This document shows, piece by piece, positions 56,774 through 62,807 of a DNA stretch of 64,000 bases; position 1 is the first letter of the stretch, and each line of letters starts with the position of its first letter. The DNA comes from an uncultured cyanobacterium. GTDB lineage: Bacteria > Cyanobacteriota > Cyanobacteriia > Cyanobacteriales > CAWCAG01. The position numbers and the translations under genes were made by a program. The stretch lies in contig CAWDOD010000004.1 of NCBI GenBank assembly GCA_963803805.1, forward strand, positions 416,001-480,000. Reading direction: 5' to 3'. The notes below the pieces were generated by a model, which had not been told where the DNA came from, ran no database searches, and was given only the letters and a program-made list of their open reading frames with translations.

Positions 56774-57793
56774 TTAGTTTTCTCGAATAATTAGAGTATA
56801 CTTTCCCTTACTGCCGGACTCATAACTATTAACAATAATGCGATAGGTATCTTCTTTTGGTAAAGTAATCGTTAGCCGAGAATTTTTATTTTCGTTGCTA
56901 ATATCGTCATTTTCGCCGATTACCTGATTATCAGAATTAACTATAGCTAAATAAGCATCAAAGTCTTCGCTTTTTAAGGAAATAGTTATTGATTGGGCTG
57001 TAGTTCCTAGAAAAGGATAACTATCATATAAACTGCTATCTGAACTAAGAGCGTTATCTCCTTCTTCTAAAGCTCCTTCTTTTACCATTAAAGGTAGGGA
57101 ATCTTCATAGCTTTGGGCATAAGCGATCGCACAGAGATTGCCAAAAACAGAATGAACATCACAAGCAACTCCTGTGGCACTGTAGTTTGGTTCAAGGATA
57201 TTTTGTCGATGGATGCGGTTAGGAATACCATCATCAATAACCATCAACATAACAATATCCTGAGCGGAACTACCGCCGTAACTAATATTTTCTCCTCGCT
57301 TTCCTGTGACAATACCGTAGAGGGTAATCTTTTCCTCAAGTTTAATAGAATCCCTAGGTATCCCCTGATTCGTACTAATCCCTTCTTTTACCAAATCCTT
57401 TGCTGCCATAGACATACCGTCAAACGTTGTTAAAGGCGGCAGAGGTTGCCTTTGGCGTAGTACGGTAATTGCTTCATCTAAAGCACTAACCCCTTCTTTT
57501 GTTAAGACGATAGTACGACCAGGTATTCTTAATAAAGTATCGCTGTAATATTGTCTCATCTCCTCTAGCTGATCAGCATAAGCAGCCGGGTTTGTTCGTA
57601 CCTGGTTAATTTGGGCAATAATTTCTTGCTCCAAAACTGATTGTATGATGGGGCTGACTCGTGTAGGATTCGGTATTTCGCTTTGTGCTATCACCTCCCT
57701 ATCTTTTTCATTGGCGAAGGATGATGTAGCGTCGACTCCACCCCATAACAGGGAACTCACTAACAAGGTTGAAGATATTATTTTTAGCTGCAT
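56774..57793 (-). CDS. Secreted CAP/SCP domain protein with C-terminal PPC domain
   Basis: Signal peptide; INQVRTNP, GENISYG, DDG...HRQNI; FDAYL...ENDD...GKYTL. Confidence 0.85.
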   Translation of the reverse strand: MQLKIISSTLLVSSLLWGGVDATSSFANEKDREVIAQSEIPNPTRVSPIIQSVLEQEIIAQINQVRTNPAAYADQLEEMRQYYSDTLLRIPGRTIVLTKEGVSALDEAITVLRQRQPLPPLTTFDGMSMAAKDLVKEGISTNQGIPRDSIKLEEKITLYGIVTGKRGENISYGGSSAQDIVMLMVIDDGIPNRIHRQNILEPNYSATGVACDVHSVFGNLCAIAYAQSYEDSLPLMVKEGALEEGDNALSSDSSLYDSYPFLGTTAQSITISLKSEDFDAYLAIVNSDNQVIGENDDISNENKNSRLTITLPKEDTYRIIVNSYESGSKGKYTLIIREN

Positions 57794-57891
57794 AGTTAAT
57801 TTTAGTGATCCTCAAGGTTAAGCCATTATAAAAGAAAATTCCCGAATCTTCCTAGTGAAAAGCAAATTATTTAGAAATGTATCAATGGCTT

Positions 57892-57947
57892 ATTGCTATT
57901 AAATATCAATATGCTATCCTAAGCTTATTGTGAATAATTACTATCAA
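57892..57947 (+). promoter_or_regulatory. Tandem Fur-box-like sites upstream of the small peptide gene
   Basis: ATTGCTATTAAATATCAAT (57892-57910) and ATTGTGAATAATTACTATCAA (57927-57947) resemble a TTGA-N-AAT-N-ATT-N-TCAA palindrome. Confidence 0.45.
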
Positions 57948-57957
57948 GAGGTGCATC

Positions 57958-58095
57958 ATGACAGTCAAATCCCAGCCAGTAAAACAGAGTAAGATTGAGA
58001 TTGAAGTCAAAAATCTTGCCCCGGAAACTAATACAGATACCACCGTTAAAGGTTATCAAAGTGGAGCCTTTGATGGGGATGATGGCTCTGATTAG
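57958..58095 (+). CDS. Putative RiPP precursor peptide, 45 aa, Asp/Gly-rich C-terminus
   Basis: RBS AAGAGGTG; MTVKSQPVKQSKIEIEVKNLAPETNTDTTVKGYQSGAFDGDDGSD; same strand, directly upstream of the JmjC gene. Confidence 0.7.
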   Translation: MTVKSQPVKQSKIEIEVKNLAPETNTDTTVKGYQSGAFDGDDGSD

Positions 58096-58127
58096 TTAAG
58101 ATACTTTTTAAAATTGGTTTAGATTCA

Positions 58128-58234
58128 TATAGCAATTATTAGTACCATGAGGTAAGCCTTAGACTCTATTTTTGCTAATAGCTAGTGGCGAATGGCTAAT
58201 AGAAATGTACCTCCGCAGCTTGGGAATTGCTATA
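58128..58234. mobile_element. MITE-like element
   Basis: TIRs TATAGCAATT...GAGGTA / TACCTC...AATTGCTATA. Confidence 0.65.
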
Positions 58235-58246
58235 TGTCTTTTTTGG

Positions 58247-58275
58247 GGAAGTAAAATTGTTACAATTTTGCTTCC
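58247..58275 (+). terminator. Stem-loop between peptide gene and JmjC gene
   Basis: GGAAGTAAAATTGT-T-ACAATTTTGCTTCC. Confidence 0.6.
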
Positions 58276-58350
58276 TTCCTTAGTTTAAGTAAAAGAGATA
58301 ACTTAATCTATTGCTGAAAAAGTATTTATAGCAATCATCCAAGAAATAAC

Positions 58351-59531
58351 ATGGAAAATCTCTCTATTAACTCTGTGATCGCAGAAATTTTATCTCCCTA
58401 CGAATTAGTCGAATTTTTTGAGAAGTATTGGACGCAAAAGAGCATTTTTATTCCTAATAATGGTCGTCGCTTCAACCAGATTTTCTCCTGGCAAAAACTC
58501 AACCATTTACTTAACTTTCATGAGTTCGATTACCCCTCTCTACGTTTAGCTAAAAATGGAGAAGTTTTACCTCCGAAAGAAAACGCTCATTTCCTGAAAC
58601 ATTGTCAAGAGGGAGCAACTTTAATCATTGATCGTTTACACAAACTGGTTCCTGAAGTAGGGCGTTTTGCCGCAGCAATCAAAGATGATTTAGGTCATCC
58701 TTTACAAGTAAATATGTATTGTTCTTGCCCCAAGTACAGGGATTCAAGTGTCATTATGATACCCACGAAGTATTTATTTTACAAGTAGATGGCTGTAAAC
58801 AATGGCATATTTTTGCTGATACAGTTAAGTACCCTTTAAAAGAAGAGAAATCATCTGCTCATTGCCCCCCCGAAAGTGAACCTTATTTAAGCTGTATCCT
58901 CGAACCTGGGGATGTTCTCTATATTCCGAGAGGACATTGGCATTATGCTAAGACAGTAGATCAACCATCTTTACACCTTACTTTAGGGGTACATTGTTTA
59001 ACGGGAATAGACTTTTTGCAGTGGTTAACAAAACAGCTAAAGGAAGAACAAGAATGGCGAACTAATTTACCGGTGATTAATAATAACTGTTCTGTTTCTC
59101 TCAACAAATACTTAGATAGTTTAACAGGGAGTTTAGCTAATTATTTACACACTAACAACTCTAGTGCTGAATATGCACAATATATAGCCAATTCAGAAAA
59201 TCTCATTCCTAAGTATGCCTTTCCCTATCAAGCGGGCTACCAAATTTTTGCCCAAGGTATCAACACAAAGTTTATGCGTCCAAAGTACCAGCGATCGCAG
59301 ATTATAGAATTACCAGGACAGCAAGGTTATAAAATTATAGTTTGGCACAAAGAAATCATCTTAAAAGGTGTCCCCAAATCTTTTGTTAATAAGTTATTTC
59401 ATCAAGAAACTTTTACTGGTATAGATGTAGCCAGTTGGTTGTCAGAGGATTTTGATTGGGAAGTAGATATTGCCCCGACTCTACGGCGTTTAGTTACAGA
59501 AGGAATTATTTTTGTTGTCAATGATGCCTAG
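58351..59531 (+). CDS. JmjC/cupin-4 (YcfD/RoxA-like) 2OG-Fe(II) hydroxylase, 1-nt frameshift at about 58727-58731
   Basis: FFEKYW, GATLII, GFKCHYDTHEVFILQVDGCKQW, LEPGDVLYIPRGHWHYA, SLHLT; winged-helix-like C-terminus; about 393 aa when joined. Confidence 0.85.
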
Positions 59532-59863
59532 TAAGCTGGCAGGTATTTATATTGTCGATGGGGGGAGGTAATGGGTAATAGGTAATGGGTAAGAATTACA
59601 GCTTATCATCTTAGTTAATTCAACAATATAAGGCTTTGTGATCGCACAATTTTTTTGCCTACAAGTAACATAAAATACGGCAAGCCGAACATTGCTCAGT
59701 TATCAATAAATATACTTAAAAAATAAAATCCATAATCTCTCTGAAGTTAATTGCTAAATTCTTGCATTAAGATGAAAGTCAAGATTTACTCAAATTCCTT
59801 ATTAAACCTAGGAGGAGTGAGAAATCATCTTTTAGTAACAAAAAATTAAATCCCATCTAATTT

Positions 59864-60871
59864 ATGACTCCTTTCTTCTGTGCCAACCTGTCTCGTCAGC
59901 TAGGGGAAGACATCATTGGTAGCGCTCCCTCTTACCAAACCTACATCATGGTAGAATGCCCTTATCCTTGGGCAGAAAATGCCTTTAAATCTCAAGGCGT
60001 TCCCCAAAACTTAAGGGAGTTGGTAGCAGAAGTTAAGGAAGCCAACTTATCTATTCGCTTTCTTTTAACCTTACCCCCGCAACCAGATCCAGAAAATCAG
60101 ACGCGGGTATTAATTTTCCAGAAACAGTCAGGGCTAGCTGTCGGTTATAAGAAACAAGCAATTAAGGTAAGCAATATCACAGATGTTGCACCACTATTAA
60201 ATAAATACTTAACATCAGAAGGTTTGCAAATTGAAGGTAAAGCCAGTAGAATCAGAGATTTCTTTGTTTGCACCCATGGAAGCCATGATAAATGTTGTTC
60301 TCGCTACGGTTATCCCTTCTTTCGCCAAGGTGTAGCTATGGTTGAGAAGCTAGGTTTAGAGGATGTAGGTTTTTGGCAAGTAAGTCATATTGGGGGACAT
60401 AGGTTTGCCCCAACCTTAATTAGCCTACCTGATGGCAGGTATTATGGGGCTTTAGACCAGGAATCTTTACAAGCAATCCTCTTACATCAAGGGGATATCA
60501 CTTGCTTAAACAGAGTTTATCGCGGTTGGGGGCTTTTACCCAGAAAAGTCCAAGTTTTAGAAAGAGAATTAATCTTACGCCACGGTTGGGAATGGTTATC
60601 TAATTCTGTTAGTTGTCGTATTCTTCAAGATTTTCCTGAAAAGAATTTAACCCAAGTAGAGTTATTTTGCCAAACCAGCAACGGAGAGACTTGTGCTTAC
60701 CAAGGAGATATTATCATAGATGAAAGTAAAACTCTGACTATGCCAGGTTCTTGTCATGCAGACAAGGCATCAACCTTTGTTAAGTATACTGCTACAAATA
60801 TTCGTCAAGTAACTAAAGTACAATCTCTAGATCATAAGCGTTCTGTATCTAGAGTCGAAAAATCAGCTTAG
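59864..60871 (+). CDS. Sucrase/ferredoxin-like (thioredoxin-like 2Fe-2S) protein
   Basis: VCTHGSHDKCC...G, SHIGGHRFAPT, YRGWG. Confidence 0.9.
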   Translation: MTPFFCANLSRQLGEDIIGSAPSYQTYIMVECPYPWAENAFKSQGVPQNLRELVAEVKEANLSIRFLLTLPPQPDPENQTRVLIFQKQSGLAVGYKKQAIKVSNITDVAPLLNKYLTSEGLQIEGKASRIRDFFVCTHGSHDKCCSRYGYPFFRQGVAMVEKLGLEDVGFWQVSHIGGHRFAPTLISLPDGRYYGALDQESLQAILLHQGDITCLNRVYRGWGLLPRKVQVLERELILRHGWEWLSNSVSCRILQDFPEKNLTQVELFCQTSNGETCAYQGDIIIDESKTLTMPGSCHADKASTFVKYTATNIRQVTKVQSLDHKRSVSRVEKSA

Positions 60872-60899: not shown

Positions 60900-62807
60900 A
60901 TGGTGGTATTGAAAAAATGGCAATGGCTCTTACTAATTAGTCCTATTGCTGGATTAGTTACCTTCTTGCTAATCTCCGCAGGGTGGCAAATTCATCAATG
61001 GGGTATTAATTGGATATGGGGGCTATTTATCCTCATCTTAGCTGGGTGGCGTTGGTTATTGGTAAAATGGACTCGCCCTGGTATTGGGGAAATCGAGACT
61101 GCTGTAGCCGAAGCAGAAGCAGAATTAGCCACTGTCCAAGCAGAAACAGCCAACCTTTTAGCCTCAAATGATCTGATTACCAAAACGGTAGAAACGGCCT
61201 TACAAAGCACCTTAGAAACCGCTAGAAATGACCTTCCTATTTGGGAAGATTGGACTGCATTTTGGCAACGTTGTCAAGAATTAATTGTTGCTGTTGCCCA
61301 TGCCTACCATCCGGAAGTTAAATATCCTCTACTCAACATCTATATTCCCCAAGCTTACGGCTTAATGCGAGGAACTGTAGATGATATGGATCGTTGGATG
61401 GAACAACTATCTCCAGCCTTAAATAAAGTTACTGTCGGACAAGGCTTTGAAGCCTATGAAGTTTATCGTAAACTAGAACCATCAGCACGCAAACTCCTGC
61501 GCGTCTGGAATTTTGCTCAATGGTTCCTAAATCCCGCCGCCGCTTTAGCGAAACAAGCTAGTCAGGGTTATAATAACCGTGCAACGGAACAACTTTTAGG
61601 GAATTTGGGGCAGATGCTGCGAGAAGTCGCCCTACGGAATCTCTGTAAACAAGCTGTAGCCCTTTATGGTAGTGACTCCTTACCAGAATCAACCTTTAAC
61701 CTTTCTACCCCTAGTTTACCCAAAGCCCAAAGCCAAACTCTCCAAGAAATTTTAGCAACCGCAGAACCGACTGAAGTTGTAGAGCAAAAACCTGTTAATA
61801 TTCTGTTGGTAGGTAGAACTGGTTCAGGTAAAAGCAGTCTGATCAATACCCTCTTTCAAGCTGAAAAAGCCGAAGTAGATGTTCTTCCCAGCACCGATAG
61901 ATTGCAAAGTTACCATTGGCAGGTTCCTAATGGAGAAAGCCTCACCCTTTGGGATACTCCAGGATACGAACAGGCAAATCGTACTGAGTTAAGGGAGTTA
62001 GTACTAGATTATGCCATTAATGCCGACCTTCTGCTACTCGTTACTCCCGCCCTTGATCCTGCCTTACAAATGGATGCAGACTTCCTAGAAGAAGTTGCAA
62101 CAGTAGTAACAGAACTTCCTACCATTACCGTAGTGACTCAAGTAGATAGGTTGCGCCCCATTCGTGAATGGCAACCTCCTTATAACTGGCGAGATGGTAA
62201 CAGTGCCAAGGAGACATCGATCCGAGAGGCAACAAAGTATCGCGCCGAACTTTTAGGGCAGTTTTGCAACCTCATTCTTCCTACCGTTACCAGAGATGCC
62301 AAAACAAACCGCAATCCTTGGAATATCGAAGAATTATCTCTAGCTTTAGTAGAAGCGATCGCCCCGGCTAAACAACTACGTTTAGCCCGTTTCCTGCGCG
62401 ATCGCGAAGCCCGCAGTCTTGCTGCAGCGAAAATAATCGATCGTTACACATTACAAATGGCTACAACCCAAGGGCTAACTGCCTTGCTGAAAAGCCCTGT
62501 CTTGCAATTCATCTCTACCATGTCTACGGGATCACCCACCTTAGCCTATGCACTCTCCCAAAAAATTCCTGTAGAACAGTTACCCGTAGTTATTGGTAAA
62601 CTGCAAATGGGGTACGAACTTCATTCGCTTTTAGAGCCAGATAAATCCTTCGACTTACTTTCTCTTTGGAATTTGTTATTAGAGAACTCTCAAACCCCGG
62701 ATCGCAATGCTTGGGCTTTCGGTCATAGCTTGGTAGAATACTGGACACAAAATCTGACAAAAGAGCAATTGTCAGAAAGATTTGCTTATTATTTACAACG
62801 AACTTAA
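60900..62807 (+). CDS. Membrane-anchored Era/YeeP-like GTPase family protein
   Basis: 2 N-terminal TM; GRTGSGKSS, DTPG, TQVD. Confidence 0.85.
   Translation: MVVLKKWQWLLLISPIAGLVTFLLISAGWQIHQWGINWIWGLFILILAGWRWLLVKWTRPGIGEIETAVAEAEAELATVQAETANLLASNDLITKTVETALQSTLETARNDLPIWEDWTAFWQRCQELIVAVAHAYHPEVKYPLLNIYIPQAYGLMRGTVDDMDRWMEQLSPALNKVTVGQGFEAYEVYRKLEPSARKLLRVWNFAQWFLNPAAALAKQASQGYNNRATEQLLGNLGQMLREVALRNLCKQAVALYGSDSLPESTFNLSTPSLPKAQSQTLQEILATAEPTEVVEQKPVNILLVGRTGSGKSSLINTLFQAEKAEVDVLPSTDRLQSYHWQVPNGESLTLWDTPGYEQANRTELRELVLDYAINADLLLLVTPALDPALQMDADFLEEVATVVTELPTITVVTQVDRLRPIREWQPPYNWRDGNSAKETSIREATKYRAELLGQFCNLILPTVTRDAKTNRNPWNIEELSLALVEAIAPAKQLRLARFLRDREARSLAAAKIIDRYTLQMATTQGLTALLKSPVLQFISTMSTGSPTLAYALSQKIPVEQLPVVIGKLQMGYELHSLLEPDKSFDLLSLWNLLLENSQTPDRNAWAFGHSLVEYWTQNLTKEQLSERFAYYLQRT

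Follow-up and report, generated by a model that had tools for sequence, protein, structure and literature searches.

A conserved acidic-peptide, JmjC-oxygenase and Suc_Fer-like gene cassette of cyanobacteria as a candidate iron-responsive peptide-modification system

In a stretch of 64,000 nucleotides from an uncultured member of the Cyanobacteriales (GenBank assembly GCA_963803805.1, contig CAWDOD010000004.1, positions 416,001 to 480,000; the whole stretch is called the window here), three genes on the + strand make up a cassette that recurs in many cyanobacteria and that may modify a small acidic peptide in response to iron. Their order is a 45-aa open reading frame (ORF), a 255-nt spacer, a gene for a JmjC oxygenase that is split in the assembly, and a gene for a 335-aa Suc_Fer-like protein. 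The peptide gene begins with ATG and occupies positions 57958-58095 (match to the profile of its family, E 7.9e-12), and a predicted ribosome-binding site (RBS), AAGAGG, can be read directly at 57946-57951, 6 nt 5' of the ATG. The gene for the JmjC enzyme, an Fe(II)/2-oxoglutarate (2OG) oxygenase of the ribosomal-oxygenase type (PF08007), lies at 58351-59531, where the assembly has two ORFs (58351-58788 and 58719-59531), and the gene for the Suc_Fer-like protein, with its thioredoxin-like ferredoxin domain (PF06999), lies at 59864-60871. A sequence-only reading of this DNA had reported a sucrase/ferredoxin gene and the location of the whole set on one strand, and both statements held. Upstream, a match to a 21-bp Fur-type box, TTATTG..N..TCAAT, at 57890-57910 (12.0 bits by position weight matrix, PWM) overlaps what is presumed to be the core promoter of the peptide gene, and a second, weaker box-like site of putative function at 57925-57945 (10.8 bits) lies between that promoter and the RBS.

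We scanned one genome per prokaryote species, which gave 223 confirmed JmjC relatives, and compared the loci of the best 80 of these 223 (L016-L095). The 80 loci are cyanobacterial wherever the record title gives a taxon, a few titles reading 'uncultured bacterium', and they come from Moorena, Microcoleus, Tychonema, Nostoc, Scytonema, Stigonema, Symploca, Okeania, Dapis, Trichodesmium and other genera. In a set of 61 related genomes, searched with a 270-aa query, the JmjC gene was found in 12. The genome of the window is labelled G000 and its sister genome G001, and L002-L010 are orthologue loci from related genomes.

These comparisons show that the 45-aa ORF is a real gene. When its product was used in tblastn, matches were found 5' of the JmjC gene in the sister genome (84% identity) and in two further genomes (G002 and G016), and all nine orthologue loci L002-L010 have a small D-rich ORF directly 5' of the JmjC gene on the same strand. 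The peptide profile matched exactly one frame per locus in 74 of the 80 loci, always upstream of the JmjC gene and on the + strand, and found no further match elsewhere in the 80 loci or in the window. A conserved upstream peptide with an IEIEV-type leader and a D-rich tail was what a check set beforehand had looked for, and this is what the 74 loci contain. The six loci without a match are L020, L074 and L081, in which the upstream DNA is only 138-775 nt long, and three Rhizonema loci; two of the Rhizonema records hold members of the peptide family somewhere in their assemblies. The own genome has a single copy of the peptide gene (E 5.9e-11, the next match being at 0.028). Of the codons that differ between the window and the sister genome, 13 are changed synonymously and 7 nonsynonymously, and four of these seven are clustered in the linker, at codons 24-28. 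The stretch with the RBS AAGAGG, ATCAAGAGGTGCATCATG, is unchanged in the sister genome, and other loci have GGAG-type sites in the same place. The sequence-only reading was right about the 45-aa ORF and its RBS, and the absence of the ORF from the ORF track fits its length, which is under the default of 60 aa.

Members of the peptide family are 42-65 aa long (median 50) and share one layout: the N-terminus varies, and it is followed by the motif [SR]-x-S-K-I-Q-[IV]-E-[IV]-K-[ED]-I, then by a variable linker of about 15 residues, and then by the core D-x-D-G-x-D, which usually has a hydrophobic residue just before it. In the window peptide these parts are the leader KIEIEVKNL, the linker and the core FDGDDGSD. 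The majority type of core is L-N-V-D-A-D-G-S-D, and that of the window is G-A-F-D-G-D-D-G-S-D, at the extreme C-terminus. Of 68 peptides gathered by pattern, 47 have a single core, 7 have two, 8 have three and 6 have none. The near-invariant columns are S11, K12, I13, E16, D39, D42, G43 and D45, and peptides of the main clade have no signal peptide. In a search of 5.8 billion proteins the family formed 125 clusters, all of them unnamed or called 'hypothetical protein', of which those with a named source are all cyanobacterial and none has a Pfam domain. Pfam and NCBIfam gave no match for the window peptide, and a look-up in the ESM Atlas with a Microcoleus-type peptide gave no usable match. 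In the loci of Trichodesmium, Okeania and Dapis (L070, L071, L075, L076, L080, L084, L085, L087, L090 and L093-L095), 500-1500 nt separate the peptide gene from the JmjC gene, the spacer being of AT-rich repeated sequence, and peptides of this type carry up to three NFD[AS]DGGDR units.

A more distant clade, L006-L010, in which the JmjC protein is 40-47% identical to the enzyme of the sister genome, keeps a D-rich upstream ORF that is longer (83-155 aa). Judged by eye, the upstream proteins of L006, L008, L009 and L010 start with a hydrophobic, signal-peptide-like segment. The upstream proteins of this clade have an IEVEV-like strand, and their tails are unlike the main type. These proteins are rich in D and N, with five NYDYSR units in the tail of L010, ND(Q)NVDQ repeats in that of L009 and DYDRDRGRGRRRR in that of L006. 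Pfam gave no match for the longer upstream proteins of L008 and L010.

The JmjC enzyme is a 2OG enzyme of the ribosomal-oxygenase type with all of its catalytic residues, and it looks competent. Its C-terminal fragment matches PF08007 (JmjC_2) with 88.3 bits against a cut-off of 22 (E 3.9e-25); in NCBIfam there was no match for either fragment or for an intact orthologue. A profile search of the PDB found NO66 (3.9e-29), MINA53 (2.4e-25) and YxbC (1.7e-22), and more weakly a Rhodothermus cupin-4 protein (2.2e-12) and YcfD (1.6e-5). The HYD, the GxK and the final His of the enzyme align with the metal triad and the 2OG lysine of NO66 (HYD, GRK and IH). H135, D137, H198 and K150 are invariant in 81 sequences and are all present in the window, where their codons lie on the + strand at 58752-54 (His), 58758-60 (Asp), 58797-99 (Lys) and 58941-43 (His), so the earlier claim of an intact HxD...H and K was confirmed. 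An AF2 model of the enzyme has a mean predicted local distance difference test (pLDDT) value of 89.3, and in Foldseek it gave full-length matches to NO66 (E 1.6e-23), MINA53, YcfD (1.4e-18) and RmYcfD, with FIH weaker. The alignments span 392-446 columns to full-length NO66 and YcfD, and the model has the three-part architecture of a JmjC barrel, a helical arm and a C-terminal winged-helix-like domain. Identity is 16-17% to YcfD and 16-24% across the ribosomal oxygenases compared. The relatives go by the names 'cupin' and 'JmjC domain-containing' in databases, and JGI has the label 'ribosomal protein L16 Arg81 hydroxylase'. The nine further orthologues in related genomes all have unbroken frames, 384-413 aa long.

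Compared with the sister genome, the window is short of one base at 58726/58727 (TCTT-GCCCC against TCTTGGCCAC), by which a Trp codon is lost. The public DNA run X1 contains a fraction of 0.90 of the words sampled from the window, and one of its contigs equals the window over 58069-59130 (1062 nt) except for a G added behind 58726. The depth at the added G is 6.31 of 6.31, and the base restores the reading frame (...YCSWPQVQGF...). A second 1-nt indel between an X1 contig and the assembly is found at 59560. Because of the added G and this second difference, we consider that the frameshift is probably a consensus error of the assembly, as seen in one contig at a depth of 6.3 from a run that may be the source sample of the genome. 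The sequence-only reading had assumed an enzyme in need of repair, and this is probably not the case. Other apparent frameshifts of the assembly may likewise be consensus errors. In another contig of run X1 the peptide gene has three variant letters, all in third codon positions and silent when the codons are read by eye; over 58011-58098 the two alleles have depths of 3.7 and 3.3. With only three silent differences between them, the two alleles suggest that two close strains were in the sample.

The third protein matches PF06999 with 97.5 bits against a curated cut-off of 34.9 (E 1.4e-27). In 69 of the 80 loci a homologue in the same orientation stands directly 3' of the JmjC gene, and four of the other 11 loci end within about 420 nt after the JmjC gene. 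C136, H138, C144, C145, H175 and H179 occur without exception in the 70 sequences compared, and C6 and C297 in 68 of the 70. C136-X8-C145 together with H175-X3-H179 gives the pattern CX8C...HX3H of predicted [2Fe-2S] ligands, which is the bis-His [2Fe-2S] site of Aim32 in the available text on that protein (PMC8482512). A sequence search of the PDB with the Suc_Fer-like protein gave 0 matches. In its model (pLDDT 85.8) an additional thioredoxin-like domain stands at the N-terminus and a beta-rich one at the C-terminus, and the middle domain has a weak Foldseek match to an Aquifex thioredoxin-like [2Fe-2S] ferredoxin (E 2.5e-3, TM to target about 0.6).

The family is also found apart from the cassette. 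There was a Suc_Fer match in 18 of the 61 relatives, and seven genomes have close full-length homologues (41-49% identity) and no JmjC match with the 270-aa query. Six of nine Suc_Fer places in genomes without a JmjC match were examined, and in four of the six (L154, L155, L157 and L158; G050:C28, G054:C73, G017:C142 and G008:C1:5900900-5909900) the neighbours are those of siderophore-type clusters: a TonB-dependent receptor with Plug, Peripla_BP_2, MFS_1/MFS_3, ABC exporters and nonribosomal peptide synthetase (NRPS) modules (A-PCP-C). The closest homologues, the ones placed in this way, have 41-46% identity. By these neighbours the family is tied to the handling of iron chelates independently of the cassette, and it may represent an unrecognised ferric-siderophore reductase. 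Beside the Suc_Fer homologues of genomes without a JmjC match the peptide profile found nothing (best E 2.2).

Upstream of the genes we found a recurrent 21-bp palindromic box, for which a refined PWM gives the consensus TTATTGAgAAAaATTaTCAAT. In front of the JmjC gene the box has a median position of -24 from the ATG (interquartile range -28 to -22) and scores above the best shuffle in 85% of the 80 loci; a second box, about 137 nt before the ATG of the peptide gene, does so in 41%. The arrangement at 57890-57910, TTATTGC...TCAAnATGCTA, is also present in the sister-clade loci L002, L003/L016, L031 and L092. The reverse complement of TTATTGAgAAAaATTaTCAAT resembles the consensus for FurA of Anabaena, AAATAAATTCTCAATAAAT, as given in the available part of PMC4005646, and a Fur site that acts as a downstream roadblock has a precedent at isiA in the text available for PMC8634477. 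In a scan of the own genome the PWM found 161 sites of at least 13 bits. Of the 46 ORFs beside the top 70 sites, 36 were checked with Pfam and NCBIfam, after six at sites inside long ORFs, three short ones and one duplicate had been dropped. The neighbours include DpsA (NF052461, 333 bits), SufE, FeoA (with two boxes) and a regulator of the Fur family that fits models of ferric uptake regulators best, and also Ni-SOD (sodN), AcsF and a thioredoxin. A control PWM with reversed columns gave 0 such iron-type genes (20 of 23 ORFs checked). From these sequence patterns we read the 21-bp box as a candidate operator of a Fur-family protein, probably FurA. A segment of the own genome (G000:C6:124000-149400) has six box-like sites in 25 kb, together with dpsA (124339-124893), a LysR regulator (145828-146757) and feoA (148998-149333), and is probably an iron-responsive gene island. 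An identical 21-bp box, GTATTGAGAAAAATTAGCAAG, stands at G000:C3:13202 and C3:21460, 8 kb apart, before a helicase gene and a GNAT gene; the twin boxes may belong to a duplicated segment.

The sequence-only reading had placed a stem-loop between the peptide gene and the JmjC gene. Part of this stands: at 58245-58277 there is a terminator- or attenuator-like hairpin on the + strand with 15 pairs and a T-rich tail, one being found against 0.2 +/- 0.4 in shuffles, and strong hairpins of differing sequence are common in the peptide-JmjC spacers of the other loci read. Another part of the region, 58120-58240, is a dispersed MITE-like repeat that does not belong to the system. It is about 110 bp long and hairpin-forming, has 31 matches in the own genome (further copies lie at G000:C11:705005-705115, C11:652250-652357 and C4:489193-489303) and is absent from the spacer of the sister genome, and the contigs of run X1 fork there. 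With 58120-58240 a dispersed repeat, we rejected the whole spacer 58096-58350 as a regulatory stem-loop.

By these gene arrangements, the pairing of peptide and enzyme appears as good as proven genetically. The peptide also has the layout of a precursor, with a conserved leader, a variable linker and a core that is repeated one to three times. A prediction of the JmjC-peptide complex from both alignments scored 0.59 (runs 0.59, 0.59 and 0.69), and the best of three controls scored 0.01; the pLDDT of the partner was at least 49, and at least 65% of the contacts agreed between runs. The mark used for such predictions is reached by 116 of 157 solved complexes and by 2 of 215 mismatched pairs. Around the pair, the only genes widely common within 3 kb in the 80 loci are those for JmjC, Suc_Fer and a GNAT protein of about 150 aa. 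The GNAT gene lies on the opposite strand, convergent, about 1.2 kb 3' of the Suc_Fer gene in 61 of the 80 loci. A PmbA/TldD gene is present in 14 of the 80 loci, in the Microcoleus lineage.

We suggest that the cassette is an iron-responsive peptide-modification system in which Asp residues are hydroxylated to give a metal-binding peptide, and we give this reading an even chance of being right. The small gene would then encode a precursor-like peptide, whose strand-prone leader KIQ[IV]E[IV]K[ED]I would dock on the JmjC protein. The enzyme, with Fe(II) and 2OG, would hydroxylate residues of the D-x-D-G-x-D core, most likely the invariant Asp residues at their beta carbons. The product would be an acidic peptide with hydroxy-Asp and carboxylate ligands that binds a metal, most likely Fe(III), and that may be exported. 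The Suc_Fer-like bis-His [2Fe-2S] protein would most likely be a reductase that acts on the iron-peptide complex and so releases the iron, and a Fur-type repressor would switch the operon off when iron is plentiful. A fuller version makes the cassette the first ribosomally encoded metallophore of the siderophore type, in which a JmjC enzyme makes the beta-hydroxy-Asp ligands, with a new ferric-chelate reductase and Fur control. It adds that the same type of reductase also serves classical siderophore clusters of cyanobacteria and that the system is widespread in filamentous cyanobacteria (Trichodesmium, Moorena, Microcoleus). This fuller version seems rather unlikely to us. Taken as a whole, the interpretation of the sequence-only reading was partly supported.

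Several observations weigh against the proposal that the cassette makes a metal-binding peptide. The score of the JmjC-peptide complex falls in a weak band, since at 0.60 or below there are only 18 of the 157 solved complexes plus both of the mismatched pairs that passed, and a prediction in this band fails more often than it holds, except where the guess had been a likely one to begin with; we gave it the weight of a small push. Within 3 kb there is no conserved gene for a protease, an exporter or a receptor (80 loci, ORFs of at least 90 aa clustered), and genes for a leader protease and an exporter could sit elsewhere in the genome than in the 3 kb covered. The GNAT gene, the sole recurring extra neighbour, has no orthologue in the own genome by tblastn with nine queries, and for this reason we left it out of the core of the cassette. 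In the more distant loci L005-L010 there is no adjacent Suc_Fer gene despite the D-rich ORF upstream. A role of the ferredoxin-like protein in iron release, which had been proposed from the sequence, fits the close homologues in siderophore-type clusters, but two of the six places (L153 and L156) are without such a context and have a multicopper oxidase or an ROK protein and a dehydrogenase as neighbours.

The iron link is likewise indirect. The PWM was refined on the sequences that it then scored, and thus its scores are flattered; the fixed position of the box is a better argument than the scores. The Fur-like sites reported upstream are there as the two 21-bp box matches, but their 12.0 and 10.8 bits are under the 13-bit threshold used genome-wide, and no box stands before the JmjC gene of the window. 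While the conserved Fur-type box speaks indirectly for iron control, counting matches to the published FurA 19-mer does not: at least 13 of 19 positions match in 50% and 60% of the sequences in two zones, against 46% of AT-rich control windows, and this plain count was dropped as a test, the cassette zones not being separated from the controls. The numbers of iron-type genes, about 4-6 of 36 ORFs for the real PWM and 0 of 20 for the control, do not differ significantly head to head. A similar box could also be the target of a PerR-type paralogue, as the neighbours of PWM sites include dpsA, sodN and a thioredoxin gene.

Much of this evidence can be read in other ways. The peptide might stay inside the cell as a sensor or regulatory substrate, whose hydroxylation state reports Fe(II), O2 or 2OG or tunes a partner, for which FIH and the PHDs of animals are a model. 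The genetic linkage is the same under both views, the missing exporter and protease genes and the missing signal peptide of the main clade would be expected here, the enzyme belongs to the branch of protein hydroxylases (NO66, MINA53, YcfD), and 2OG is a key signal of carbon and nitrogen status in cyanobacteria. We nevertheless consider a sensor unlikely, since tandem cores in a variable number of one to three are more typical of precursors that yield a product than they are of signalling proteins, the occurrence of the Suc_Fer-like family in siderophore clusters and the Fur-type box point to the handling of metal, and the D-rich proteins of the distant clade (L006, L008, L009 and L010) start in a signal-peptide-like way by eye. 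A leader and a repeated core around a highly variable linker also suit a substrate better than a mere partner, and small dedicated substrates beside 2OG hydroxylases have a precedent among peptides that are ribosomally made and then modified post-translationally (RiPPs). It is therefore improbable that the peptide delivers metal to, or inhibits, the JmjC or the Suc_Fer-like protein, for example as a mini-chaperone that binds Fe(II)/Ca(II) or as a pseudo-substrate, while the true substrate lies elsewhere. Such a partner would also be conserved along with the enzyme, the complex prediction suggests only possible touching, and N-x-D-x-D-G-x-D resembles the first part of Ca2+-binding loops.

The enzyme could also be an ordinary ribosomal oxygenase that acts on a ribosomal protein, the upstream ORF being an unrelated small gene or a regulatory leader. 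NO66, MINA53 and YcfD are indeed its closest solved relatives, and the JGI name 'ribosomal protein L16 Arg81 hydroxylase' is attached to many members; yet identity to YcfD is as low as 16-17%, and presence in 12 of 61 related genomes would be odd for a core modifier of the ribosome. Moreover, the peptide is a constant partner, its leader and core are conserved as amino acids across genera, and its gene has its own RBS and a promoter-like region. In Trichodesmium, Okeania and Dapis the two genes are 500-1500 nt apart, which speaks against a role as a leader ORF or in attenuation. On balance this explanation appears very improbable. A different doubt concerns the host only: if the frameshift were real, the JmjC gene would be a pseudogene here and the system inactive in this organism, whatever its role elsewhere. 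The split ORF with one base fewer than in the sister genome, the mobile repeat inserted in the peptide-JmjC spacer and the lack of a box before the JmjC gene of the window would fit such decay. An X1 contig that is otherwise identical over 1062 nt and has a G at the exact site, restoring the Trp and the frame, speaks against it, as does the 1-nt difference at 59560, which suggests consensus errors in the assembly; we regard a decaying cassette as quite unlikely.

Among known systems, methanobactins and bufferins are ribosomal peptide metallophores under metal-responsive control, which are made with MNIO/DUF692 enzymes, have thiooxazole or oxazolone ligands and bind Cu. By description alone, the cassette would be like them in concept, as a ribosomal peptide modified for metal binding under metal-responsive control, and unlike them in enzymes, ligands and metal; the precursors of the distant clade start in a signal-peptide-like way, as bufferin precursors do. 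Beta-hydroxy-Asp is a classic Fe(III) ligand of siderophores, and CinX of cinnamycin and the TauD-type hydroxylases of NRPS siderophores are Asp beta-hydroxylases. The nearest relatives by sequence and fold are the ribosomal oxygenases (human NO66 and MINA53, YcfD/RoxA of E. coli, the Rhodothermus YcfD-like protein and YxbC of B. subtilis), with which the cassette enzyme shares the Pfam family, the triad and Lys, and the full-length fold. It differs from them as an accessory enzyme (12 of 61 relatives) with a dedicated acidic peptide and usually a Suc_Fer-like protein, and no ribosomal substrate is implied.

What is new here is the cassette and not the type of enzyme, because there are known JmjC enzymes for RiPP precursors. 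According to the available texts, BipG is a JmjC ornithine hydroxylase of the biphenomycin precursor (PMC12707348), and CzlI is a JmjC Phe hydroxylase for curacozole with YxbC as its top structural relative (PMC11575548). Like these, the cassette has a JmjC-type Fe/2OG enzyme with a ribosomal precursor peptide, and YxbC is related both to CzlI and to the cassette enzyme. Unlike it, as far as these texts describe them, BipG and CzlI are accessory in large multi-enzyme clusters (with radical S-adenosylmethionine enzymes, MNIO, YcaO and more) and have Orn or Phe as their targets, whereas in the cassette JmjC is the sole obvious modifying enzyme, with an Asp/Gly-rich core and a predicted [2Fe-2S] protein as partner. 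In another RiPP, the Fe/2OG enzyme SmaO and the HD enzyme SmaX convert Asp to hydroxy-Asp and then to aminomalonate (PMC12186529, available text). The cassette resembles this pair in having a hydroxylase, for which Asp hydroxylation is presumed, and a second iron enzyme; from that text SmaX is an HD-domain protein, unlike the thioredoxin-like ferredoxin here. By their descriptions, SmaO, CinX and the TauD-type enzymes belong to oxygenase families other than JmjC_2. The Suc_Fer-like protein shares PF06999 with the ferredoxins of the Apd1/Aim32 type and CX8C...HX3H with the bis-His [2Fe-2S] site of Aim32; unlike the yeast proteins, which act in redox stress, it has the extra N-terminal thioredoxin-like and C-terminal beta-rich domains and stands in peptide or siderophore gene contexts.

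No published description of a peptide/JmjC/Suc_Fer cassette was found in a literature search that covered texts outside subscription journals and supplements, and the earlier remark that this is not a described RiPP class agrees with this. In Iyer et al. 2010 (PMC2938197) the words 'sucrase' and 'ferredoxin' have 0 occurrences and no such association is mentioned. If our reading is true, many bloom-forming, mat-forming and N2-fixing cyanobacteria (Trichodesmium, Microcoleus, Moorena, Scytonema and Nostoc relatives) can make a metal-binding peptide with a compact set of three genes that escapes genome-mining tools. A RiPP-like class defined by a JmjC enzyme of the ribosomal-oxygenase type would be added, the widespread automatic label 'L16 Arg81 hydroxylase' would be corrected, and the large, functionless Suc_Fer-like family would gain a testable role in the handling of iron chelates. 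This would also bear on the acquisition of iron by iron-limited marine diazotrophs.

On its 5' side in the window the cassette is next to a gene for a CAP/PPC secreted protein on the - strand (56774-57793), and directly 3' of it, at 60900-62807, lies a gene for a 635-aa protein with N-terminal membrane helices and a dynamin/MMR_HSR1-type GTPase domain; neither has a counterpart beside the cassette in the other loci. The spacer between the JmjC and Suc_Fer genes is 332 nt long in the window, against about 150 nt in the sister genome, and it has GGTAATG-type heptamer repeats at 59556-59600. From 59569 to 59600 the contig depth rises sharply, to about 54, and this suggests that a further repeated element is present there.

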